A DNA stretch of 64,000 bases from an uncultured delta proteobacterium (GCA_903885795.1 CAISJV010000027.1:22943-86942), one strand, 5' to 3'. Positions 6,206 to 63,788 are shown, numbered from the stretch's first letter. Numbers and translations: made by a program. The notes: generated by a model not told the origin, from the letters alone.

Positions 6206-8503
6206 CTACTTGATACAGACCCGGCGGACCTGTTTGAAATCGGTCATGCCTTGAATTGACTTCTGGATGCCATCCTGAAGAAGAGTCGTCATACCTTCGG
6301 ACATGGATTTCTCCCTCAGGTTTTCCACGGGTTCGTGTTTCTGGATCATCCGTTTGATATCGTCAGAAGCGACCAATAGTTCATGGATGCCCATCCTTCC
6401 CTTATATCCTGTTTTATCACAGATATCGCAGCCTTTAGGGCGGTAAAGTTTGAGGTCGTCCGTATAAGCGACGTTGAGCTTCTTAAAGTCTTCTTCACCA
6501 TAGCTCTCCACAATCTCGTTATATTCCTGTTGGGTTGGATGATAAGGTTCCTTGCAGTTCTTGCAGAGGGTGCGCACCAGGCGCTGGGCAAGGATGCCCA
6601 GGAGGGCGTCGGCGAAATTCAGTGGGTCGATCCCCATATCCAGGAGCCTGGTGATGGTTTCCGGGGCGCTGTTGGTATGGAGGGTGCTGAAGACGAGATG
6701 TCCCGTCAGGGACGCCTCGACGCCTGTCTTGGCGGTTTCGAAATCCCGCATTTCGCCGACCATGATGACATCCGGATCTGCCCGCAGGAAGGCCCTCATG
6801 GCCGCTGCGAAATCGAAGCCGATTTTTGATTGCACCTGAACCTGCCGGAGTCCGTACTGGGTAATTTCGACGGGATCTTCGGCGGTCCAGATCTTCCGGT
6901 CCGGAGTGTTGATATGGTGCAGGGCGGCATGGAGGGTGGTGGTTTTGCCGGAACCGGTGGGACCCACCACCAGGATCATTCCATAGGGCTTTTCGCAGAT
7001 GTCGAGGAGTCCCTTGTAATTTCGAGGCAACATGCCCATCGCCTCCAGAGGAAGGGTTTCTCCCTTGGCCAGAATACGCATAACGACGTCCTCGACGCCG
7101 CCTTGAGTCGGGATTGTTGCCACGCGCAATTCAATTTCATCTCCGCCAGATCTTCTGAATTTTATTTTGCCGTCCTGGGGAAGGCGTTTGATGGTGATAT
7201 CAAGATTGGACATGATCTTGATCCTCGATATCAGTGCTGCCCGATAGCTGTAAGGAACCGTCTGATAGAGGGCGCAGTCCCCATCGACCCGGAATCTTAC
7301 TTCTACATTCTTTTTGCCAACATTGGGCTCGATATGAATGTCTGAAGTACGCCGGACGTAGGCGTCATTGATAATCTTGTTGACCAGCTGCATTATGGCG
7401 CTGTCTGATTCGGTTACGATGTCTCCTTCTTCATCCTCATCGCCTTCATCCTCATCGGCATCCATTTTTCCAAGGATGTCGGAAATAGAGGTTTCATCTT
7501 CCGGAGACTGGTAAAAATAATTAATGAACTTAATTATATCACCAGTGAGGGCCACATCATACCGGATTGTTTTGGTTTTCATGAGGTTTTCGATCATGTC
7601 CCGCTTGAGGATGTTATTAGGGTCGTCCACAAGGATATTGATGCTGCCGTCTTCCGTCCTTCCTATGGGCACCCATAACTCTCTGCGAAGGTAGTCCTTC
7701 TTAAGGTTCTTGATGAGATCTCCGGGGATGGGAATTTTATCGTTGTACTGGACAAACTTGCAATGATAGAACTCGGCGAAAGACTTCCCCAGATCATCCT
7801 TGGAGATCTTGTATTTCTTCATGAGGTAGACTTCCATTGTTTCCTTCTGCTCCCGGGATTCTTCCCACGCAGCATCCAGCCCATCCTCCTTTAGGAGATC
7901 ACGGCTAATCAGGTAATCGAAGCGGGTCTTGCGTTTCCGGGCAAAACGCTCCTGATTGAAAAAGGCGACGCCGAGGACATCACATATTTCTTGCATAAAA
8001 CCTTTTTCATCTTCTGAAAACCTGCCGATCCCCCCTTTTTTGTTGAGAATCTGAACTACGCCCATGAGCTTACCGTTGTGATATACCGGGGCGGTAAGAA
8101 TCTGTTTGGTCCGGAAACCTGATTTATTGTCCCAACTGGCGTCGAAGGTCAGCTCCTTGTCAATCGCCTTCAATTCCTTGTCATCGTAAGCATCGGCAAT
8201 ATTGGCAATTTTCCCTGTATTGGCCACATAGCCGGCAATACTGCAATTGCTGATAGGGACCCTGATTTCGTTAATCTTTGATCCGTAAAGAAACATGGAA
8301 AAGATCTCGTTTCTCAGGTGGTCGATGATATAGATGGTAATTGAGTGAGCTTCAAAGAGATTGAGGATGCCGTCCTTCAGATCTACGAGTATCTGCTTGA
8401 TGTTTTGGGCGGAGTGGATCCGATTGGTAATATCCTGAAGCTTCTTACGGCGTTGAAGTTGTTCTTCAAGTTCGTTGATCTGTTGGGAAGCGGGACCAGC
8501 CAT
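6206..8503 (-). CDS. GspE/PilB-family secretion ATPase with an N-terminal GAF domain
   Basis: 765 aa. GAF-like segment (ITIYIIDHLRNEIF...CSIAGYVANTGKIANIADAY...LTAPVYHNGKLMGVVQILNKKG). T2SS-E N-domain-like middle. Walker A GPTGSGKTTT, GEMRD, and the tetracysteine CKNCKEPY...CDICDKTGYKGR. Confidence 0.85.
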   Translation of the reverse strand: MAGPASQQINELEEQLQRRKKLQDITNRIHSAQNIKQILVDLKDGILNLFEAHSITIYIIDHLRNEIFSMFLYGSKINEIRVPISNCSIAGYVANTGKIANIADAYDDKELKAIDKELTFDASWDNKSGFRTKQILTAPVYHNGKLMGVVQILNKKGGIGRFSEDEKGFMQEICDVLGVAFFNQERFARKRKTRFDYLISRDLLKEDGLDAAWEESREQKETMEVYLMKKYKISKDDLGKSFAEFYHCKFVQYNDKIPIPGDLIKNLKKDYLRRELWVPIGRTEDGSINILVDDPNNILKRDMIENLMKTKTIRYDVALTGDIIKFINYFYQSPEDETSISDILGKMDADEDEGDEDEEGDIVTESDSAIMQLVNKIINDAYVRRTSDIHIEPNVGKKNVEVRFRVDGDCALYQTVPYSYRAALISRIKIMSNLDITIKRLPQDGKIKFRRSGGDEIELRVATIPTQGGVEDVVMRILAKGETLPLEAMGMLPRNYKGLLDICEKPYGMILVVGPTGSGKTTTLHAALHHINTPDRKIWTAEDPVEITQYGLRQVQVQSKIGFDFAAAMRAFLRADPDVIMVGEMRDFETAKTGVEASLTGHLVFSTLHTNSAPETITRLLDMGIDPLNFADALLGILAQRLVRTLCKNCKEPYHPTQQEYNEIVESYGEEDFKKLNVAYTDDLKLYRPKGCDICDKTGYKGRMGIHELLVASDDIKRMIQKHEPVENLREKSMSEGMTTLLQDGIQKSIQGMTDFKQVRRVCIK

Positions 8504-52711: not shown

Positions 52712-53578
52712 ATGACCGAAGAACGAAGCGCCAATGCCATTTTATTGCTCTCCTGTCAAGACCAGAAGGGCCTGGTCTATAATATCTCCAACTTTATTTA
52801 TCGCCATAACGGCAATATTGTCCATGCGGCGCAGCACACCTCGGTGACAAGAAAGATCTTTTTCATGCGGATCGAATGGGAACTAAACGGCTTTGTCATT
52901 CCCCGCGAGGAAATCGCCCTGGTCTTCAGGCATGTGGCCAGCCAGTTCGATATGAACTGGGAGCTGCATTTCACCGATACGATTCCCAGGATGGCAATTT
53001 TCGTGTCCCGCCATCCCCATTGCCTCTACGATCTCATTCTGAGACGGCAGATGGGAGAATTCCGGGCGGAGATCCCCTTGGTCATCAGCAATCATCTGGA
53101 TCTTAAGCCCATGATCGAGCAGTTTGGCTTAAAGTTCATGCACTTTCCCATTACCCGGGAAAACAAGGAGGAGCAGGAACAGCGAGAGCTTGAGGAAATA
53201 AGGAAACGCAATATCGACCTGATTGTCCTTGCCCGGTACATGCAGGTCCTGTCGAACCGCTTCGTAGGGGAATATCCGAACAAAATTATAAACATTCACC
53301 ATTCATTTCTTCCCGCCTTTGCCGGCTCGAATCCCTACCAGCAGGCCTATGACCGGGGGGTGAAGATCATCGGCGCCACAAGCCATTATGTGACGGAACA
53401 GCTTGACGACGGACCAATCATTGCCCAGGATGTCATCAAGATTAGCCATCGGGATGCCCTGGATGATATCAAGCTAAAAAGCCGGGATCTGGAAAGAACG
53501 GTCCTGGCCAAAGCCGTCCGCCTGCAACTCGAGAACCGGATCCTGGCCTACGGTTCCAAGACCGTCGTTTTCGAATAA
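52712..53578 (+). CDS. purU: formyltetrahydrofolate deformylase
   Basis: 288 aa with an ACT domain N-terminus and a formyltransferase core (INIHHSFLPAF.G..PY..A, GATSHYVT). Confidence 0.9.
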   Translation: MTEERSANAILLLSCQDQKGLVYNISNFIYRHNGNIVHAAQHTSVTRKIFFMRIEWELNGFVIPREEIALVFRHVASQFDMNWELHFTDTIPRMAIFVSRHPHCLYDLILRRQMGEFRAEIPLVISNHLDLKPMIEQFGLKFMHFPITRENKEEQEQRELEEIRKRNIDLIVLARYMQVLSNRFVGEYPNKIINIHHSFLPAFAGSNPYQQAYDRGVKIIGATSHYVTEQLDDGPIIAQDVIKISHRDALDDIKLKSRDLERTVLAKAVRLQLENRILAYGSKTVVFE

Positions 53579-53587
53579 CTGTTCAAA

Positions 53588-54403
53588 ATGATGAAAAATT
53601 CCGACCCCCATCTCTGTCAGCCCGACGAGTGTAAATCCTGCGGGGCCTGTTGTGGGCTCTATAACTATGCCGACTCTTCCCGTGAATCGCTTATTTTGCG
53701 GCTGAGGCGGAGAACGAAACTGTTTCGCCACGCCGATAAATCCCCGGAGGGGCTTCAGGCTTTCTCCTCCATGATTCAGGCTGCGGAAGACATGGCCAAG
53801 CGCTACGAGGTTATCTACTGCTGTGAGTACCTGGGATTTCTCGATGCGGGAGAGAAGCGCGTCGGCTGTCTTCTCCACCCCCTTCAGAATGGCGGCGTGG
53901 ATCACCGGGAGGTCTCTTTTTACGGCCGTGAGCTCTGTGATGGCCATTTCTGCCCAAGTTATCACTATATCTCCCGGGAAGAAAAACAGTCGCTCCTGAA
54001 TACTATCGATGACTGGTACCTCTTCGGACTGGTCATTACGGATATCGATCTGGTCAAATCATATTTCCAGCTGATCAGCGACGGGGTCTATGAGACGCCC
54101 TCGCCGGAACGGTTCAAAGAAGTCCTGCTCCGCAAAAAGGTTTTGTCCTTCTTTGATCTCAAGCTATCATGGCCCTTCCGTTCCGCCGATGTACATCGCC
54201 TGGGGAAATATTATTTTGACGGTTCCCAGTACATGATCAACCATATCGATTACGAGGACCTTGATTCGGAAAGATCTCGTTTCGACAGGATATTCCTGAG
54301 CCTGACCTCCGATTTTCGCAGTCGGGAAGACCTCCGGCAGGCGGAAGACCTGATTCAGGGTCATCTGGATGCCTTTATCCATGCTTATCAGGATAACCAT
54401 TGA
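53588..54403 (+). CDS. YkgJ-like CxxCxxCC (putative Zn/Fe-chelating) domain protein
   Basis: 271 aa. N-terminal CKSCGACCGLYNY, then further Cys/His motifs (YCCEYLGF, GCLLHP, CDGHFCPSYH). Confidence 0.55.
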   Translation: MMKNSDPHLCQPDECKSCGACCGLYNYADSSRESLILRLRRRTKLFRHADKSPEGLQAFSSMIQAAEDMAKRYEVIYCCEYLGFLDAGEKRVGCLLHPLQNGGVDHREVSFYGRELCDGHFCPSYHYISREEKQSLLNTIDDWYLFGLVITDIDLVKSYFQLISDGVYETPSPERFKEVLLRKKVLSFFDLKLSWPFRSADVHRLGKYYFDGSQYMINHIDYEDLDSERSRFDRIFLSLTSDFRSREDLRQAEDLIQGHLDAFIHAYQDNH

Positions 54404-54484
54404 TTTTTCGTTGACAAAGGACGTCATGTCGATTAGCATCCCTCGCATTATCTGGATGCTGGAACGGTTCCAAGGGGGGATCAC

Positions 54485-55012
54485 ATGGAAGCTATGCAAA
54501 AGGAGATTCTGTTCTCCCGGGATAACATCAATCAGCGCGTAACGGAGCTTGCCGCCGACATCTCCCGGGATTACGCCGGGAAAGAGCTGGTCGTTGTCGG
54601 CGTCCTCAAAGGGGCCTTCGTCTTTATGGCCGATCTTATTCGCTGCATCCAGACCCCCTGTGTCATCGATTTTGCGAGATTGGCGAGCTACGGATCGGGA
54701 TCGACAAGTTCCGGTCAGATCGTCATTACCAAGGACATTGAAATGGAGATTAAAGACAGGGACGTCTTGATTGTTGAGGATATCGTGGATACGGGTCTGA
54801 CCCTGTCTTTCCTTGTCCAGGCCTTTAAGAAGAGACACCCTCGTTCCCTGAAGATCTGTGCCTTCATGGATAAGAGGTTGCGCCGCAAGGTTGCCTTCGA
54901 AGCGGATTATGTAGGCTTTACCATTGACGATGGTTTTGTGGTCGGCTATGGTCTCGATTTCAATGAGAAGGCAAGATATTTTCCGGATGTTTACATCGTG
55001 ACGAATTTGTAG
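54485..55012 (+). CDS. hpt: hypoxanthine phosphoribosyltransferase
   Basis: 175 aa. VVVGVLKGAFVFMADL, VLIVEDIVDTGLTL. Confidence 0.9.
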   Translation: MEAMQKEILFSRDNINQRVTELAADISRDYAGKELVVVGVLKGAFVFMADLIRCIQTPCVIDFARLASYGSGSTSSGQIVITKDIEMEIKDRDVLIVEDIVDTGLTLSFLVQAFKKRHPRSLKICAFMDKRLRRKVAFEADYVGFTIDDGFVVGYGLDFNEKARYFPDVYIVTNL

Positions 55013-55902: not shown

Positions 55903-56448
55903 TTATCTTTTCTGGGTATCGTAGAGCTTTAGTATCCTGTCCGTGATATCGATGCTTTCCTCCGCGGTAATTACGGCCATGCGGTCCAGAATGATGGTGA
56001 AACGCTCACCCCGGGCATAATTCCTCAGGACCTGCATGATCTCGCCGATAACCTTCTGGGTTATTTCCATTTCTTTACGTTTGAGTTCCCCTTCCGCATC
56101 CTCGCGCAGGTACTGAAGTTCCCGCATTTCGTGCTTGATCTGATCTCCTTTTTTCTTCCGCGCATCCATGGCGCCGGGTTCGAGGCCTTTGAATTCTTCC
56201 TCCAGTTTCCGGACTTCCCCTTCCTTGGCGACAATGGCGGCCTGTTTTTTCTCAACATCCTTCATGAAGACGTTACGGACCTTCTGGGAGTTCTTTGATT
56301 CCCTGAGGATTTTCTGCATATCCACCATGCCGATCTTCTGGGGCCCACCGCCGACCGCCGCCTTTGGCGCCGCCCCGGCAGGCAGGGCCAGTAGCATAAT
56401 CATCAATAAAAAGGCCATCCACACTAAACATCTCATCTCTTTTTTCAC
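55903..56448 (-). CDS. OmpH/Skp-family periplasmic chaperone
   Basis: Signal peptide (MRCLVWMAFLLMIMLLALPAGAAP). QKIGMVDMQKILRESKNSQKVRNVF... is coiled-coil, Skp-like sequence. GTG start at 56448 lies 8 nt after GGAGGAG, with an alternative ATG at 56436. Confidence 0.8.
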   Translation of the reverse strand: MKKEMRCLVWMAFLLMIMLLALPAGAAPKAAVGGGPQKIGMVDMQKILRESKNSQKVRNVFMKDVEKKQAAIVAKEGEVRKLEEEFKGLEPGAMDARKKKGDQIKHEMRELQYLREDAEGELKRKEMEITQKVIGEIMQVLRNYARGERFTIILDRMAVITAEESIDITDRILKLYDTQKR

Positions 56449-56595
56449 TATCCTGACTCCTCCTTCGTTGGCTTGGGATGCTCTTAACTTCTTTTGCCCA
56501 TGAATGTAAATGGGGGGAAACAGATATGTCGGTCTGTTTCCCCCCATGGAAAGTTGTCGTCGGGGAGAGTCATAAAAAGGGTAATGACCTCCCCC

Positions 56596-59196
56596 TTACT
56601 TGCTCCCCTGGAACCCTCCGACTGCACGGCCGTAAGCTGAGTCGCCGGCTTTCCAGACGCCGCCTATGTATTTTCCTGCATCAGCCTTGTTTCCGTAAAC
56701 AGTCCCGGAGGCGCCCTTTTCGGTGGCAGTTCCTATGCCGTTGATCATCCAAGTACCGGAACTAGGGTTGATGGTAAAGGTGCTCGTCTGACCGGTCCCA
56801 CTGTTGAAGCTCCCACTGGCGCCTGCTATAGCGACGCTGTTCCCACCGCCGGAAACGTTGACGTTGAAGCCGGTGACGGCCGGGCTTGCAAAATTGACAG
56901 TGCCGCTGAAGGTTCCGGTCATGGCCGTCCCGGGACTGTTACCCACGAAGTACGTCCCCCAGGCGTTGCCGCTATAATTGGCCGTAATCATGTTAGACTT
57001 CAATGTAGCCATTTCGCTGTCCGTTGTCGCACTGCCCCAGACGTAGGCCCCTTGATTCATGAAGTCATAACTCGATCCGCTACCGCCCATTGACATGGTG
57101 TTGCTCTGCGTCCAGGTTCCCCATTCCATATATTCATTGGAGCCAACTTGGGAGATCGTGACGGGCTGACTTCCCGTCCATGTGCCACCACTGGTACCCA
57201 ATGCTACCATGTTCTTTGTTGCGCCCGTTCCGTCTATTTGGGTGGAATAGGTGTTGGCGTTATTCATGGCGTAGGCGTTGCTCGATTTGAAGTCTTCTAG
57301 CCCCGTGGTCAAATACGTATCCGCATAAGATCCCCCCGTGTACTCGAGCATCCCTGCAAAGTGGCCCATCTGTCCCATTTGTATAACGGATTTATTGCCC
57401 TGGAAAACACCGACGGCCCCCGTATTGTTAGTACTATTGCCCATGCCCCAGGCGCCGCCCATGTTGTCGCTGCTGGGCCCGTAGAGGGAGCCGTTTAAGT
57501 AAGTCTTGTCGGGGGTAACGCCGTTCAGGTTCCAGGTGCCGGTGCTTTGTCCCATTTGGAGGGAGGCGTCACTCGCGATAGTTCCGTAGGCGCCGTTAAT
57601 GGAGGCGTAGGCCCCGGGGCCCGAAACGTCAAGTTTAAAATTGGTCACTCTGGCGCTTGTGAAGTTTACATCGCTGCTGAAGCTACCCGTCATATTTATG
57701 CCCCCCGCTGATGTCCAGTAGGTGCCATAGGCAGGACCGCTGTAGGTTGCTACCACTGAGGCTGTCACCAGGGAAGGCGTATTGTAGCCGGAAATCCAGT
57801 AGGTCCGGTTGTCGAAGGCGTAGCTGGTGTTATCGACGGTAAAGGAACCCGGGACCGTCGCGTATCCCCATTCCATGTATGAGTTTTCTCCAATCGTGGT
57901 GCTGGAGATAGCGGAACTCAACTCTCCCGAGTTTTTGGTCCCTGAATCGAAAACTACCCACTTCAAGGTGGGGGTGCCGAATCCTCCCCCGCCGCTGTTG
58001 CCTAGAACCCGGGTATAATCCGTGCTGCTTTTAGCCCCTTCAGCCCAGATATTGGAATTCATGTCGTAGCGGTAGCGGCTGCCGAATCCCTCCATGAGGG
58101 TGCCACCCGTGAGGTTCGAAAGCATAGTTGCGAAGTACCCGACTTTGTTGCCCGAGGCGTTCGTTTTCGGGTCTGTCACGGGATCTTTTGCGGCGGCCTG
58201 TTGTTGTAAGATATTGTCATTCTGTTGCTGGGCTATACTCGATGTGTCAACCGTATTGGTTGTCGGAGCCCCCGTGCCGTCCGCAGTTGTTCTCGCATTC
58301 GGGGCGTTGCCGCTTGAGCTACCGCCACTGCTCTGGCCGTCGCTGCCTCCGCCACCCGGCGGCGGCACGTTTGTTTCGGCCTGGAAGCGCTGGGAAACCT
58401 GGGGGGGAGTAGGCATGAGAGTTCCGATTCCCAGGGGAGAGGACGACACCGTCTGCCCTGGTCCCACGTTCTGCGTTCTTCCGTCCACGGTCGAAGTGAC
58501 GGCCACCGTGCCATCGAAGCCGTGGACTGTCGTCGTGATAACCGGCGGCTGGTTCGCCTGGGCCAAAAGGAGGTGGCGCCCCCAATCGTCAGAGGCGTCG
58601 GCAAGAAGGAGGGGAAGCGCCCCGAAAGTCTTTTCGCCTTCTATGGTTACCTCCATACCGAATTTCGTCCCTCGGACGCCGGCAACGGCAGTCGGGCTTC
58701 CCACGGTCATGGTCGTGCCCTTCTGGCTGAGGAGGCGGATCGCATAGAACATGGCCTTGCCCCGGGCCATGGAGAGGTCAGATTTCTTTTCTGTCATGTT
58801 TTTATTTCCCGTCACCTCCTTGACGGTTATGCGGGTATGGTCACCGAGGGTGATGATGTCGTTGTTAAGGAGCTTGACGCGGCATTTGGAGGCCTTCAAT
58901 GTAAGGACGATATCCTGCTCGTAAAGTTTGTCGCCGTTTGCCGCAAAATAGGCCTGGCTGAGATCACCGCGGGCCACGACCACATGGCCTGTAGCCGTCT
59001 GAATCACCCCGGCTTCTTTGGTCTTTCCCGGTAGGAAGTAGTCCTTGACGCTGACGTTCTTCAATTCCCTGGGCAGGGCATCTGCAGGGGCCACGCGACC
59101 CCGGTTCTCAGCGGCGAGGCTGACGCCAGCCATCCCTACGCAGGCGATGATCGTGACGAGGATGATCAGGGTGAAAATACGCTTGTGGCAGTTCAT
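56596..59196 (-). CDS. secreted (possibly lipidated) protein: N-terminal FecR domain, Gly/Ser/Pro-rich linker, two TbpB-like handle + beta-barrel lobes
   Basis: 866 aa. FecR-like sequence (VIQTATGHVVVARGD...GDKLYEQDIVLT...GTTMTVGSPTAVAGVRGTKFGMEV). Linker PPPGGGGSDGQSSGGSSSGN. Two copies of the pattern YMEWG-x-(W/A) ... A-x-YSG-x-A-x-GTY ... MTG-x-FS-x-x-VNF-x-x-x-x-VT-x-F ... GG-x-W ... AVG-x-FQG-x-K. Confidence 0.7.
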   Translation of the reverse strand: MNCHKRIFTLIILVTIIACVGMAGVSLAAENRGRVAPADALPRELKNVSVKDYFLPGKTKEAGVIQTATGHVVVARGDLSQAYFAANGDKLYEQDIVLTLKASKCRVKLLNNDIITLGDHTRITVKEVTGNKNMTEKKSDLSMARGKAMFYAIRLLSQKGTTMTVGSPTAVAGVRGTKFGMEVTIEGEKTFGALPLLLADASDDWGRHLLLAQANQPPVITTTVHGFDGTVAVTSTVDGRTQNVGPGQTVSSSPLGIGTLMPTPPQVSQRFQAETNVPPPGGGGSDGQSSGGSSSGNAPNARTTADGTGAPTTNTVDTSSIAQQQNDNILQQQAAAKDPVTDPKTNASGNKVGYFATMLSNLTGGTLMEGFGSRYRYDMNSNIWAEGAKSSTDYTRVLGNSGGGGFGTPTLKWVVFDSGTKNSGELSSAISSTTIGENSYMEWGYATVPGSFTVDNTSYAFDNRTYWISGYNTPSLVTASVVATYSGPAYGTYWTSAGGINMTGSFSSDVNFTSARVTNFKLDVSGPGAYASINGAYGTIASDASLQMGQSTGTWNLNGVTPDKTYLNGSLYGPSSDNMGGAWGMGNSTNNTGAVGVFQGNKSVIQMGQMGHFAGMLEYTGGSYADTYLTTGLEDFKSSNAYAMNNANTYSTQIDGTGATKNMVALGTSGGTWTGSQPVTISQVGSNEYMEWGTWTQSNTMSMGGSGSSYDFMNQGAYVWGSATTDSEMATLKSNMITANYSGNAWGTYFVGNSPGTAMTGTFSGTVNFASPAVTGFNVNVSGGGNSVAIAGASGSFNSGTGQTSTFTINPSSGTWMINGIGTATEKGASGTVYGNKADAGKYIGGVWKAGDSAYGRAVGGFQGSK

Positions 59197-59214
59197 CGTA
59201 ACCTCCCGTGATAA

Positions 59215-60672
59215 TCAGAAATAGAACCCGACACTCAAGGTGTAGGTCTCTTTGGTAAAGCTGTAAAGCTCATCGTTTGAATGATTGTCGATATAGTTGA
59301 AGGCAAAGGATGTAAAATAATGCTTCAGGAACTCCTGGCTTACGACGGCGGAGACGCTTTGACGGCGGTCCACCCGGGAGTCATTATAAAGGACGGGCGC
59401 CGCCTTGTAGTTTCTTTCGCCGAGCTGGTATCTCAGAAAGAAATCCGTCTTCGTAGGAAAGCGGGTATAGTAAGATATTGCCCCATAAGGCGCCGTATAG
59501 GTGAAGTTTCGGGCATCAGCGATGGATAATTCATAGCCGATATTAAGGGAAACGATGTGGCGGCGGTTCATGAAAAAGAAGTTCGGTGTGATCTCGTAGC
59601 GCGTCGTAGTATTGTTCAGGTTGTAGTTGTCGCTATCCATGAAGCTCTCCTTGCTCCATGAAAACAAGCCCCTGACACTGAAATAAGGCGTGAAATAGTG
59701 TTCCATGGTCGGCCGGAAATAAGAAATACTTGACAGTGGTGAACTGCCATACTCCTGTTTGGCAAAACCAACGGGCAGTTTCAGGATGTCGTTTGGTCCC
59801 ACCCACCAGGGGCCCGTCGAGACGTCTCCGAGGAGGTAGTTGTATTGCCCGTAGTGGAAATAAGCCTGGTTGTAAACATCGGCAGTAGTATTCCACATGA
59901 AACCCCCTTTATCTCCGAAATCATAGAGGACGTTTCCAGAGAAATTCTCGATGGAGGCCCAATCGCCAAGCTTTTTCGTTTCGTCTTTGAGGGTCAGGGT
60001 TCCACCGGTCACAGAGAGTTCCTTCTGGTCCGGTCCACTCGATATATTGCTGTCCCATTGGAAACCCTGGGAGAATCGAACATTCCAGAACACAGTTTTG
60101 GTGCTTTCGTCGATCGCGGCAAGAAGGCGGTCGATATTTTTTTGGACATCTTGCGGCGGCTTGGACTGCTTGACGATTTCCAGTTCCCGGCGGGCCTCGT
60201 TGTATTGCTTCGCCTGGAAATAGGCCGCTGCCAGTTCGAGGCGTACCCGGTGCAGCCCGGGGTCAATGGCCAGCATCTTTTGAAATTTCACGATGGCAAG
60301 CTTCGTATCCCCGGTATTCATGGCGGATGTTCCCAGCCACCACATGAGATCCATCGTTTCCACGTCGGCGGAAATGCTGTTGAAGATGGGCAGGGCTTGG
60401 GCAAATTTCCCGTCGTAATAAAGGGTCAGGGCCTCTGCAAGCTTGTCATCCAGGCTTGCCACCTTTTCCGGCGACATCTTGCGAAGATTTTCGACGGCCT
60501 CCTTGTTGGTCGTCTGGAAATCCATATCCCCGGTGGGCTTTTCCGTTTCTGCCAAGGCCGGTGAGGTGTTGGGCGTTTGGGAATGGGCCTTTACGGTTAT
60601 GGTGAGGTTAATGGAGGTAAGGAGGATAAAGCAGAGCAGATATGGAAAAAGCCGTTCATACATGAGAGTCAC
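59215..60672 (-). CDS. Slam-like outer-membrane protein (N-terminal TPR region + DUF560-type beta-barrel)
   Basis: 485 aa with a signal peptide. TPR-like helices (LTLYYDGKFAQALPIF, AIVKFQKMLAIDPGLHRVRLELAAAYFQAKQYNEARRELE). About 300 aa of amphipathic beta-strand sequence ends ...FNYIDNHSNDELYSFTKETYTLSVGFYF. It sits 18 nt upstream of a TbpB-like gene. Confidence 0.55.
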   Translation of the reverse strand: MTLMYERLFPYLLCFILLTSINLTITVKAHSQTPNTSPALAETEKPTGDMDFQTTNKEAVENLRKMSPEKVASLDDKLAEALTLYYDGKFAQALPIFNSISADVETMDLMWWLGTSAMNTGDTKLAIVKFQKMLAIDPGLHRVRLELAAAYFQAKQYNEARRELEIVKQSKPPQDVQKNIDRLLAAIDESTKTVFWNVRFSQGFQWDSNISSGPDQKELSVTGGTLTLKDETKKLGDWASIENFSGNVLYDFGDKGGFMWNTTADVYNQAYFHYGQYNYLLGDVSTGPWWVGPNDILKLPVGFAKQEYGSSPLSSISYFRPTMEHYFTPYFSVRGLFSWSKESFMDSDNYNLNNTTTRYEITPNFFFMNRRHIVSLNIGYELSIADARNFTYTAPYGAISYYTRFPTKTDFFLRYQLGERNYKAAPVLYNDSRVDRRQSVSAVVSQEFLKHYFTSFAFNYIDNHSNDELYSFTKETYTLSVGFYF

Positions 60673-60906: not shown

Positions 60907-61539
60907 TTACCTCCTCAAGGCGACTCTGAGCGCTGCGTCTTGGATCGCCCCTTCCCGAAGCAGGGCCGGGGGATCGGCGGTTACGTCAAGAAAAGTCGAT
61001 CCCCTGCCGCCAGGGGTGGGGCCGCCGTCGATGACAGTGATTTGCACGTTTGTCATTTGCCCCCTGACCTCTTCGGCGGATGTGCATTCTCTTTCCCCGG
61101 AAAGATTCGCGCTGGTGGCGGTGATCGGACGGCCAAGACCTGCGGCTAGGGCATTGGCGATGGGGTGGCTGGAGATGCGAACTCCAATTTTACTGGTACC
61201 TGCCGTCAGACGCGGGCTGACCGATGGGGATGCCTCGAATACTATGGTCAAAGGCCCTGGCCAGAATGCAGTCATAAGTGTTTTGGCTTCTTCCGGGATG
61301 TTGTTCGTAATTAGATCAAGATCATCCTTTTTGGAAATGATCAGGGCGATGGGATTATTAAATGAGCGTCCTTTGATCTCAAAAATGCGATCAACAGCCC
61401 CTTCGTTCGCAGCATCGGCGGCGAGGCCGTAGAAGGTTTCCGTCGGGAAAGCGACAACGCCCCCTGCTTTTAATATTGTCACCACCTTTTCAATACTTGA
61501 GGGAGCAATATCGTTGGGATCGATATAGATAATGGCCAT
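60907..61539 (-). CDS. tsaC: L-threonylcarbamoyladenylate synthase (YrdC/TsaC family)
   Basis: 210 aa. [20 protein letters not shown]....P, SANLSGE. Confidence 0.85.
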
Positions 61540-61545
61540 AAATTA

Positions 61546-62058
61546 TCAAGACCTGATCCCCATAAGATTATCGTGTTTTAACGCCACATCCCTAGCCATA
61601 TCATCCACGAACTTTATCAATTTATTTCGCATGCTTTCATTTTCCAAGGCCAGAATCCTCACGGCGAACAAGGCCGCGTTTCTGGCCCCGGCCTTACCGA
61701 TGGCCATTGTCGCCACCGGAATGCCGCCGGGCATTTGTACGGTTGCCAGCAGCGCGTCAAGTCCCCGCAGAGATGTCGCATCGATGGGAACACCAATAAC
61801 TGGCAGCAGTGTTTCGGAGGCGATAACGCCGGCCAGGTGGGCCGCCGCCCCGGCCCCGACGATGATGACCTTTATTCCCCGTTGAGAAGCGTTTTTTGCG
61901 AACGTCGTCGTCCGCGCGGGGGAGCGATGGGCCGAAGTCAGGAATAATTCGTAGGGAATATCAAACTGCTCCAGGATTTTTGTGGCTTCTTCCATAACCG
62001 GAAGATCGGAGTCGCTTCCCATAACAACGCTGACGATGGGTTTGGCTTTAGGTTTCAT
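61546..62058 (-). CDS. purE: 5-(carboxyamino)imidazole ribonucleotide mutase
   Basis: [22 protein letters not shown]...TSAHR.P..., [14 protein letters not shown]. Start is at 62058, 9 nt after GGAGGA. The longer track ORF runs into a repeat hairpin. Confidence 0.9.
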
Positions 62059-62108
62059 TGATACGATTCCTCCTACAACTTTAGAGATCACGTGTTCGTA
62101 AATAAGTC

Positions 62109-62215
62109 CCCTTATCCTCTCCACGGGGAGAGGGTAAGGGCGGGGTTTATGTAGTCATTCCTAAATCTTAACCCATCCCCACCCCAGACCTTCCCTTGAA
62201 GGTGAGAGGGGAAAT
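62109..62215. repeat. G-rich interspersed repeat, copy 2 (inverted), plus an adjacent 14-bp-stem hairpin
   Basis: Hairpin cccttatcctctcc-acgg-ggagagggtaaggg (62109-62140). Positions 62165-62215 are the reverse complement of the 48.7 kb element, with core ttaacccatccccacccca at 62168-62186. Confidence 0.75.
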
Positions 62216-62219
62216 CTAT

Positions 62220-63788
62220 TTAGTGTTTGAAATGCCGTTTCCCCGTGAAAATCATCGTGATGCCGTGTTCATTTGCCGCCTGGATGGCCTCTTCGTCCCG
62301 GACGGAACCGCCTGGCTGGATGATGGCCGTAACCCCCGCTACGGCAGCCATGTCAATGCCGTCCCGGAAGGGGAAGAAGGCGTCCGAGGCCAGGACTGTT
62401 CCCTCCGTGGGCAGCAGTGACTTCATTTTGGCGATCTTGACGGAATCCACCCGGCTCATCTGGCCGGCCCCGACGCCGACGAGCTGATCCTTCGTAGCGT
62501 AGACGATAGCGTTGGATTTGACATGCTTGACGATCCGCCAGGCGAAATCGAGGGCCTGGTATTCCTCTTCCGTGGGCAGCCTCTTGGTGACGATCTGGGC
62601 CTTGCGGATGTCGAGATCATCTGTATCCCGCTCCTGGATGAGCAGTCCGCCAATAACCCGGCGAAAATCATAGCCTGTATGGGAGGAGGGGACGCTTTGA
62701 GGAATTTCCAGGACTCGGACGTTTTTCTTGGCCCCGAGAATGGCCTTGGCCTCATTGTCGAAGGCGGGGGCGATGATCACTTCTAGGAAAACCTTGGCTA
62801 ATTCTTCCGCTGTCTTCGCGTCCACGGTCCGGTTGAGGGCCACAATGCCGCCAAACGCCGACACGGGGTCAGTCTTCAAGGCCTTCTGATAGGCTGTCAC
62901 GAGATCGCCGTCCGAGGTCGCGGCGCCGCAGGGATTGGCGTGCTTGATTACCACCGCCGCCGGCAGGTTGAAATCCGAAACCATCTGCCAGGCCGCGTCG
63001 GAGTCCATGATGTTATTATAGGACAATTCCTTGCCCTGGAGCTGCCGGGCATTGGCGACGGCCGACAGGAGGGGATTATTTTCCGTGTAGAAGGCCGCCT
63101 TCTGGTGGGGGTTTTCCCCGTAGCGGAGATCCTGGGCCATGGCGAACTGGAAGGTGTAGGTTTCCGGGAATTCCTTCTTGCTGCCGTCGGGGTTTATCTT
63201 GCCGAGATAATTGGAGATGGCGCCATCGTAACGGGCCGTTAACTGAAAGGTCTTGGTCGCCAAGCGGAAATTTGTCGTTTCCGAGATCTTCCCGCCGGTC
63301 CGCTGCATTTCCTCAATTATTTTTGAGTAATCGCCGGGATCAGTGACAACACTGACGAAACGGTAATTCTTGGCCGACGCCCGGAGCATGGTGGGGCCGC
63401 CGATATCGACGTTCTCCACTGCTTCTTCCAGGGTGCACTCCTCTTTGGCCACGGTATCCTCAAAACGATAGAGATTGATGACGACCATGTCGATGAGGTC
63501 AATGCCATGGGCCTGCACAGCCTCGATATGTTTGGAATTGTCTCTGAGGGCGAGGAGTCCGCCGTGAATCTTGGGGTGAAGGGTCTTGAGGCGACCGTCC
63601 ATCATTTCCGGAAAGCCAGTATAATCGGACACATCACGCACTTCCAGACCGCTTTTCCGCAACTGCGCCGCCGTCCCCCCCGTAGAAAGGATTTCCACGC
63701 CAAATTTATTTAATTCCCTGGCAAAATCGATGATGCCATATTTGTCGGTGACGCTGATCAGTACCCGCTTGATGACGTTCAAATGCAT
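62220..63788 (-). CDS. purH: bifunctional AICAR transformylase / IMP cyclohydrolase
   Basis: 522 aa. [43 protein letters not shown], and a C-terminal ...TGKRHFKH. Confidence 0.95.

Follow-up and report, generated by a model that had tools for sequence, protein, structure and literature searches.

The locus described here raises the question of how a protein that joins an FecR-type domain to a pair of TbpB-like lobes is exported, and on which side of the outer membrane its parts come to lie. It belongs to a 64,000-nucleotide stretch of DNA from an uncultured delta proteobacterium (GCA_903885795.1 CAISJV010000027.1:22943-86942), referred to below as the window. The open reading frame (ORF) in question (56596..59196, minus strand) encodes a protein of 866 residues with the N-terminus MNCHKRIFTLIILVTIIACVGMAGVSLAAENRG. 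By testable criteria the protein belongs to the cargo of Slam, the outer-membrane protein of type 11 secretion, with TbpB-type barrels. Its topology is less certain; the arrangement we favour, at about an even chance, is that of a lipid-free type 11 cargo whose lobes are exported and whose FecR-like head serves as a periplasmic anchor or docking module.

Slam has been described as an autonomous translocon for unfolded TbpB, for which Skp acts as a periplasmic holdase; it recognises a C-terminal specificity motif, and transport is believed to be powered by folding on the far side of the membrane (PMC9090332). Predicted Slam substrates share a C-terminal barrel of eight strands (PMC5449769, PMC12282271). 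The window protein has a Slam gene as its neighbour, a C-terminal eight-stranded TbpBBD barrel (from AlphaFold2 modelling, Foldseek and a family profile, with Pfam below threshold) and a Sec-type signal peptide, as judged by conservation. The first-pass annotation, a reading of the sequence without database searches, had spoken of a cargo architecture, and the gene directly upstream (59215..60672, minus strand) encodes a Slam-type protein of 485 residues, with an N-terminal tetratricopeptide repeat (TPR) region and a SlipAM/DUF560 barrel. Both Pfam models score above their cutoffs (TPR_Slam, 41.4 bits against 35.2; SlipAM, 35.6 bits against 22), the SlipAM match covering the whole length of the model over residues 196-485. 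The Slam stop codon (59215-59217, minus strand) lies 18 nt upstream of the cargo ATG, and a ribosome-binding site, GGGAGG (59202..59207, minus strand), can be read from the sequence 5 nt 5′ of that ATG. Scanning species-representative genomes gave 74 loci, of which 65 could be evaluated for Slam: in 48 it comes directly before the cargo on the same strand, in 9 it is elsewhere in the locus and in 8 it is absent; loci L003 to L006 are examples of the Slam-then-cargo order. We consider it very likely that the window protein is a Slam cargo with TbpB-like lobes.

The two lobes are paralogous, as the first-pass annotation had supposed. The opening motif G(Y/H)FA(T/G)ML and the closing motif VG(V/G)FQG(N/S)K occur where it had placed them (GYFATML at residue 353, VGVFQGNK at 595, GHFAGML at 611 and VGGFQGSK at 859), and a composition-corrected self-comparison by BLASTP aligned residues 427-602 with residues 676-866 at 36% identity over 192 columns (E=6e-22), an internal duplication far beyond chance. 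A lobe hidden Markov model (HMM) sets the limits at residues 351-602 for lobe 1 (57391..58146, minus strand) and 609-866 for lobe 2 (56599..57372, minus strand); the lobes are thus of about 252 and 258 residues, somewhat shorter than the estimate of about 270. Lobe 1 comprises a β-sheet handle followed by a TbpB_B_D-type barrel (residues ~480-602). Lobe 2 repeats this handle and barrel and runs to the C-terminal end of the protein, ...AVGGFQGSK, which is presumed, by analogy with known cargo, to be the end that Slam recognises.

Three indirect lines of evidence agree that the lobes are TbpB-like. A phmmer search of Protein Data Bank (PDB) sequences with the single window protein found nothing, and a family profile was needed; with it, TbpB chains were matched at E=1.9e-7 and the NHBA/GNA2132 barrel at ~1e-3, one of the TbpB alignments running from the end of the barrel into the next handle motif (‘eYleWGtWt’ in the family, ‘EYMKFGQLW’ in TbpB). 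Four homologs (P0028, P0036, P0093 and P0096) exceed the Pfam cutoff for TbpB_B_D, in the C-terminal half of each lobe. The AlphaFold2 model of residues 340-866 has a mean predicted local distance difference test (pLDDT) score of 94.4 and a predicted template modelling (TM) score, pTM, of 0.71; it is all-β by DSSP, each modelled lobe consisting of a block of about ten strands and then a block of eight to nine. When this model was compared with the PDB by Foldseek, the top 28 matches were full-length TbpB or LbpB (E 5e-12 to 5e-8, probability 1.00), followed by the C-domain of NHBA (target-normalised TM-score, TMt, 0.69), the TbpB C-lobe (TMt 0.52), the hemophilin HphA and fHbp; NHBA, TbpB, HphA and fHbp are all known Slam/type 11 cargo. 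The proposed handle-plus-barrel lobes are therefore borne out at the level of the model, and the predicted fold is not an unrelated one, a possibility that the first-pass annotation had itself raised.

The resemblance to TbpB and LbpB extends to the layout of the lobes. Like these proteins, the window protein has two tandem lobes, each a β-sheet handle with a TbpB_B_D barrel, and they are its top structural matches; sequence identity is only 11-16%, however, the whole-protein TM-score is 0.20-0.26, and the window protein was independently duplicated and is without a conserved lipobox, a TbpA partner or a host association. The bilobed likeness drawn by the first-pass annotation thus holds for the arrangement of the lobes, whilst the two-lobe state, to judge from the family, is probably convergent with TbpB and not inherited from it, since the family is mostly one-lobed and has duplicated its lobes independently several times. 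Identification of the protein as a TbpB was rejected on account of the missing conserved lipobox and TbpA partner and the independent duplication. Binding of transferrin or lactoferrin is unlikely in view of ecology, the hosts of the genes being environmental anaerobes. The 22-kb locus L001, whose cargo protein is identical, has no annotated TonB-dependent receptor of the TbpA/LbpA type. Iron uptake in the style of TbpA was likewise rejected as a default reading, because an FbpABC-like importer was found near one locus only. That importer, of the ATP-binding cassette (ABC) type (binding protein, TOBE_2 ATPase and double permease; L003:2181-6217), lies directly upstream of Slam in a one-lobe locus and is the sole hint of a link to metal uptake, no other neighbouring gene suggesting iron or haem.

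The wider family is real, widespread in one phylum-level lineage and under-annotated. A word-indexed search returned 104 clusters at 90% identity, every one of them with an FecR domain and most of them unnamed or called ‘FecR family protein’, and an exhaustive HMMER search over 1.84 billion representatives (threshold E<=1e-30) found 304, or about 300 clusters at 50% identity. All of these come from genomes of the Desulfobacterota type, and the design has so far turned up only among relatives of sulfate reducers and syntrophs. The 74 loci come from Syntrophales, Syntrophaceae, Desulfobacterales, Desulfatiglandales and similar metagenome-assembled genomes (MAGs), or from MAGs that bear only a loose label, ‘Deltaproteobacteria’ or ‘Pseudomonadota’. 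Syntrophus, Syntrophales and Syntrophaceae MAGs are the nearest relatives with a name. Across the family the number of lobes ranges from one to six. Among the 104 clusters there is one lobe in 75, two in 27, three in one and four in one, and one lobe is, from these comparisons, the ancestral state. In most two-lobe proteins N-lobes resemble N-lobes (51% alike) and C-lobes resemble C-lobes (43%) more than N-lobes resemble C-lobes (32%), which points to a single old duplication, while P0093, P0009 and P0035 (three-lobe; locus L021) have independent, more recent ones. In 75 of 101 proteins no more than 3 residues separate the end of the last lobe from the C-terminus, the consensus being A-x-G-x-F-Q-G-x-[RK]. 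Lobes without the N-terminal module are absent from the genome loci, barring ORFs truncated at contig ends or broken by frameshifts. The six-lobe maximum is a 1959-residue protein with its lobes in tandem (L009:2479-8355, plus strand); other large proteins (P0226, P0225 and P0009; 1421-1973 residues) have four to six matched stretches.

Compared with the characterised Slam cargo (TbpB, LbpB, HpuA, fHbp, NHBA and the hemophilins HphA/Hpl), the window protein is alike in its Slam neighbour, its Sec signal peptide, its lobes of handle and eight-stranded barrel with a barrel at the extreme C-terminus, and the involvement of Skp. It differs in its FecR/PupR-like head, a module missing from the ten or so architectures so far described, in the absence of a conserved lipobox, in the variable number of lobes in its family, and in having no TonB-dependent receptor, haem oxygenase or extracytoplasmic function (ECF) sigma factor as neighbour; its hosts are free-living anaerobes of the Desulfobacterota type, whereas the Proteobacteria studied are host-associated or marine. 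Multi-TbpBBD ‘Sphingomonas’ and ‘Psychrobacter’ surface proteins have already been predicted as cargo (Grossman et al. 2025), and Slam homologs were noted in delta-proteobacteria in 2017, when only lipobox-bearing neighbours were followed up (PMC5449769). In the type 11 secretion literature searched, FecR-headed cargo was not found, FecR appearing there only as a separate neighbouring regulator; such separate FecR regulator genes often co-occur with hemophilin-type cargo in Proteobacteria (bioRxiv 10.1101/2023.03.15.532718). The fusion, which the first-pass annotation considered a new domain combination, is accordingly undescribed in that literature but already present in sequence databases, in the ~300 clusters mentioned above, and a few relatives carry precomputed matches to both FecR and TbpB_B_D.

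Type 11 secretion has been studied almost wholly in host-associated Proteobacteria, where cargo are lipoproteins or soluble haemophores linked to TonB-dependent uptake. The window family indicates that free-living anaerobic Desulfobacterota use the translocon and the barrel signal with cargo that have no conserved lipid anchor, one to six lobes and an FecR-like head obligately fused to them. Even on a conservative reading, this is a cargo architecture undescribed in the type 11 literature searched. Screens for cargo based on a lipobox or on Pfam miss the FecR-headed family, because its proteins are annotated only as ‘FecR family protein’.

The FecR/PupR-like module lies at residues ~38-276 (58369..59085, minus strand), as defined by Pfam, AlphaFold2 and Foldseek. 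Its core, residues 97-187 (58636-58908, minus strand), matches Pfam FecR (PF04773) at E=7.3e-7 (30 bits against a cutoff of 24), and an AlphaFold2 model of residues 30-345 is folded over residues ~37-276, with pLDDT >90 in most of the module. By Foldseek the significant matches are two, BDI_1681 (4m0n; E=1.2e-5) and the C-terminal cell-surface signalling domain (CCSSD) of PupR (6ovk_R; E=1.7e-5, TMt 0.52), over ~180 columns; both are periplasmic domains of anti-sigma factors. The module therefore shares with FecR/PupR anti-sigma factors a Pfam FecR match above cutoff and the periplasmic-domain fold (E ~1e-5), but it is N-terminal, behind a cleavable signal peptide, and no gene of the fecI or fecA type neighbours it. 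The window protein is not itself an FecR anti-sigma factor, because it has neither a cytoplasmic anti-sigma domain nor a transmembrane helix, only the 29-residue signal peptide preceding the conserved mature N-terminus. Neither an ECF sigma factor nor a TonB-dependent transducer was found in the annotated locus L001 or among the commonest flanking families, and the identification was rejected on these grounds together with the lack of a FecI or FecA neighbour.

A second likeness concerns only part of the module. Residues of the module match locally the ‘cell surface anchoring domain’ of an RTX ice-binding adhesin (5ix9; TMt 0.78, root-mean-square deviation 1.2 Å, 65 columns, E=0.037), and the NCBIfam model retention_LapA matches below threshold (E=0.0018; 18.5 bits against a cutoff of 50), as do those for Leptospira Lsa33 (E=2.9e-10) and LipL45. 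In concept the LapA/MpIBP system is similar, an N-terminal folded domain being kept in the periplasm and tethering a secreted protein through an outer-membrane pore; it depends, however, on a type I secretion system (T1SS) with LapE in place of Slam, and the window protein has no RTX repeats and no LapG site. With a partial fold match and no T1SS or RTX context, the resemblance is a lead, not membership of the LapA-type retention modules.

Between head and lobes lies a disordered linker rich in Gly, Ser, Thr, Pro and Ala (residues 277-350; 58147..58368, minus strand), identified from composition and from AlphaFold2, in which pLDDT falls below 50 over residues ~292-335. It contains the low-complexity stretch PPPGGGGSDGQSSGGSSSGN (residues 278-297), so that the order given by the first-pass annotation, an FecR-type domain behind the N-terminus and then a low-complexity linker, is correct. 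Family-wide, this linker has a median length of 70 residues (interquartile range 56-84), 88% of them small or polar, compared with a median of 6 residues for the gaps between lobes.

Two further features of relatives bear on the location of the head. A subclade (P0096/L006, L038, L039, L048 and L068) has a peptidoglycan-binding OmpA domain fused ahead of the FecR module, and Slam is still directly upstream in every member; domain matches place the fused proteins at L038:4251-6620, L039:4405-6768, L048:2261-4561 and L068:1836-3926. Proteins with a CHASE2 domain are encoded in 9 of the 74 loci (L021, L030, L034, L041, L044, L047, L051, L057 and L059). In six loci the neighbour is a CHASE2 adenylate/guanylate cyclase of ~750 residues, convergent with the cargo and 30-100 nt after it (for example, L051:6846-9107, minus strand, in Desulfobacterium sp. 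N47), and the outer flanks of these loci differ (ATP synthase, penicillin-binding protein PBP1 or DNA methylase). [quoted passage not shown] The pairs of LysM/OmpA-FecR proteins with CHASE2 enzymes (COG4254-type; the Burkholderia ‘BiofilmReg’ operon; the Campylobacterota clusters) resemble the present family in setting a secreted FecR-domain protein beside a CHASE2 sensor enzyme and in having an N-terminal peptidoglycan-binding domain in some members. Neither TbpB-like lobes nor a Slam neighbour is known for those proteins, and the window locus, for its part, has no CHASE2 gene.

In the arrangement that we favour, the protein would be exported by Sec to the periplasm and cleaved by signal peptidase I (SPase I), without lipidation. 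Skp, encoded directly downstream, would keep the chain unfolded in the periplasm, and the adjacent Slam would recognise the C-terminal TbpB-type barrel and thread the chain outward, C-terminus first. The two handle-plus-barrel lobes would then fold on the cell surface and bind a ligand, while the FecR/PupR-like module would fold and stay in the periplasm, the disordered linker of about 70 residues crossing the outer membrane. The N-terminal module would thereby take the place of the lipid anchor of classical TbpB-like surface lipoproteins, and could dock to periplasmic partners, such as peptidoglycan through the OmpA domain in some relatives and CHASE2 sensors in others. A periplasmic head would make this a novel means of tethering a surface protein and, perhaps, of relaying a signal across the outer membrane.

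Retention of the module in the periplasm, taken on its own, is a tentative proposal that we place slightly below an even chance; it draws on the OmpA fusions, the periplasmic fold relatives and the CHASE2 neighbours. We prefer it because the significant fold relatives of the module are all periplasmic, because a peptidoglycan-binding domain is fused ahead of it in some Slam-partnered members, because a long disordered linker is conserved exactly at the junction of head and lobes, and because a cargo without a lipid anchor would otherwise be without means to stay on the cell. A number of observations weigh against this picture as a whole. The N-terminal domains of known cargo are exported as effectors (PMC12282271), and by default the FecR module would be outside too; the nearest named relatives of the module in NCBIfam, Lsa33 and LipL45, are named as a surface adhesin and a lipoprotein. 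Neither an OmpA domain nor a CHASE2 gene is present in the 64-kb window, and where CHASE2 neighbours occur, in 12% of loci only, they are convergent and not co-transcribed. Standalone N-terminal modules exist. As to the lobes, no TbpB model reached the Pfam threshold on the whole window protein; taken alone, the barrel of lobe 1 matched TbpB_B_D below threshold (E=0.0044, 18 bits against a cutoff of 26) and that of lobe 2 did not match it, and the low whole-protein TM-score to TbpB given above belongs here too. Dependence on Slam, finally, is read from adjacency and from homology to known cargo.

The strongest competitor, less probable in our view but a serious one, is that Slam exports the whole protein, including the FecR-like module, and that it is then released in the manner of a hemophilin or loosely held on the surface. 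The FecR-like module would then be an extracellular effector or ligand-binding domain, for which the lobes would supply a pedestal and targeting domains, an allotment of roles that we hold possible to the same limited degree. Full export would agree with the behaviour of characterised type 11 cargo, which export variable N-terminal domains as their effector part and many of which are soluble (PMC12282271), with the frequent occurrence of disordered N-terminal regions in predicted cargo (PMC12282271), with the lack of a conserved lipobox in the window protein, and with the Leptospira names attached to the nearest module relatives. The N-terminal OmpA peptidoglycan-binding domain of some members, on the other hand, makes sense only in the periplasm, and the significant structural relatives of the module are all periplasmic; and lobes that have multiplied from one to six beside a single N-terminal module are better understood as the working surface part than as a pedestal. 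It is these points that incline us to a periplasmic head.

The N-terminus of the window protein has all of the n-, h- and c-regions of a Sec-type signal peptide (residues 1-29; 59110..59196, minus strand), and the first-pass annotation had left open whether it ends in a lipobox or in an SPase I site. The lipobox pattern, I-I-A-C ending at Cys19, is formally there in the window protein, and would be expected of a classical Slam-dependent surface lipoprotein, cut by signal peptidase II before Cys19 and anchored by lipid as TbpB is; characterised TbpB-like cargo are mostly lipoproteins, and a few homologs (P0004, P0015 and P0018) also have the pattern. Homologs P0005 to P0008, however, which are 62-64% identical to the window protein, have Trp in the place of Cys19, and many others either lack the Cys altogether or show Leu, Val or Ile at position -1. 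When the 85 homologs with a complete N-terminus were compared, an AxA-like site was found no more than 8 residues before the conserved mature N-terminus, (E/D/N)-x-R-G ... LPxEL, in 79, and a lipobox-like motif in 6. The segment that follows Cys19, VGMAGVSLAA, is hydrophobic, as if the h-region ran on. As Cys19 is not conserved and the AxA-like site is common across the homologs, cleavage by SPase I rather than lipidation is likely, at SLAA|ENRG or one residue earlier (SLA|AENRG); this call is made from conservation and without a dedicated predictor. The ambiguity seen by the first-pass annotation is therefore tipped towards SPase I, the protein lacks the conserved lipobox that underlies the lipid anchor of TbpB/LbpB surface lipoproteins, and a lipid-anchored surface protein is very improbable.

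That the protein is purely periplasmic, an accessory to an FecR-type regulator or an envelope tether with Slam as a structural partner or by coincidence, would suit the FecR-like fold and the OmpA-fused variants but is the least probable of the readings, given the Slam gene directly upstream in 48 of 65 loci from divergent genomes whose flanks are otherwise unrelated, the TbpB-type barrel at the extreme C-terminus that is a hallmark of Slam substrates, and the lack of a cytoplasmic anti-sigma domain, transmembrane helix, nearby ECF sigma factor or TonB-dependent transducer.

If the head is indeed retained in the periplasm, a role in signalling may be considered, although we think it rather unlikely; it draws on the CHASE2 neighbours and on the co-occurrence of FecR regulator genes with hemophilin-type cargo. 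The FecR-domain protein SMc02177 of S. meliloti has been reported not to be required for signal perception, and we have not used it as support. The surface receptor with a signalling module of its own, envisaged by the first-pass annotation, is compatible with the evidence but putative. In its fullest form, a speculative one to which we give a similarly low weight, the protein would be a lipid-free receptor spanning the outer membrane, the surface lobes capturing a ligand, the linker remaining threaded and the FecR-like head docking to CHASE2 cyclases or to peptidoglycan. Were this so, Slam would have its first substrate that remains threaded in the outer membrane, and cell-surface signalling a route without a TonB-dependent transducer. 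With a periplasmic head, the window family would also make testable whether a Slam substrate can remain threaded through its translocon.

The gene following the cargo in the window (55903..56547, minus strand) encodes a periplasmic chaperone of the Skp/OmpH type (Pfam OmpH, E=1.2e-23). A skp gene after the cargo is confined to the closest, Syntrophaceae-type loci (L001, L002, L008, L009 and L010). The window gene as called gives 214 residues and its counterpart in the identical locus L001 gives 181; the true start probably lies inside the longer call, close to the signal peptide MRCLVWMAFLL.... Among the 92 flanking ORFs no third gene generally conserved around the Slam-cargo pair was found, and their 25 commonest families include no TonB-dependent receptor, ECF sigma factor or haem oxygenase; those that recur are CHASE2 cyclases (7 flanks), MgsA, GNAT and Sua5. 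The 64-kb window contains no second Slam, second cargo or second Skp. A scan for promoters and terminators between 55.5 and 61.2 kb found sites no more numerous than in shuffled sequence and does not set the limits of an operon.

Several loci have two or three cargo paralogues for one Slam (L010:2097-7599, L083:1006-8014, L027, L029, L047, L050, L064 and L066), the order in L083 being Slam, a two-lobe cargo, a one-lobe cargo and a protein of 337 residues with the N-terminal module only. A standalone module, P0125 (282 residues, 72% identical to that of the window protein), is encoded in L082 (7001-14194) directly upstream of a 1084-residue WD40 β-propeller protein and near a 7TMR-DISMED2 sensor histidine kinase. 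The distant P0100 (L007:5192-10730) matches the barrel part of the lobe model only; its gene comes after molybdopterin/formate-dehydrogenase-like genes, with no Slam gene beside it. The presence of type 11 genes close to formate dehydrogenase loci has been noted in a preprint.

The Slam-cargo-Skp cassette is set among housekeeping genes (purH, purE, Sua5, hpt and purU), with mutS, glyS and secD farther away. The purine and one-carbon genes around it (purU-like, hpt-like, Sua5/TsaC, purE and purH) occupy window positions 52712-55012 (plus strand) and 60907-63788 (minus strand), and in locus L001 purD lies just past them. A statistical co-occurrence of type 11 genes with genes for nucleotide synthesis and one-carbon metabolism has been reported and is unexplained (Grossman et al. 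2025). In the same part of the window a Cys-rich ORF of 271 residues (53588-54403, plus strand), with the motif CKSCGACC... and several more Cys, has no recorded Pfam match; L001 and L002, which are identical here, have a gene call for it as well. Farther off (6206-8503, minus strand) lies a type II/IV secretion ATPase (T2SSE) with N-terminal GAF and MshEN domains, a composition that suggests a nucleotide-regulated pilus or secretion ATPase.

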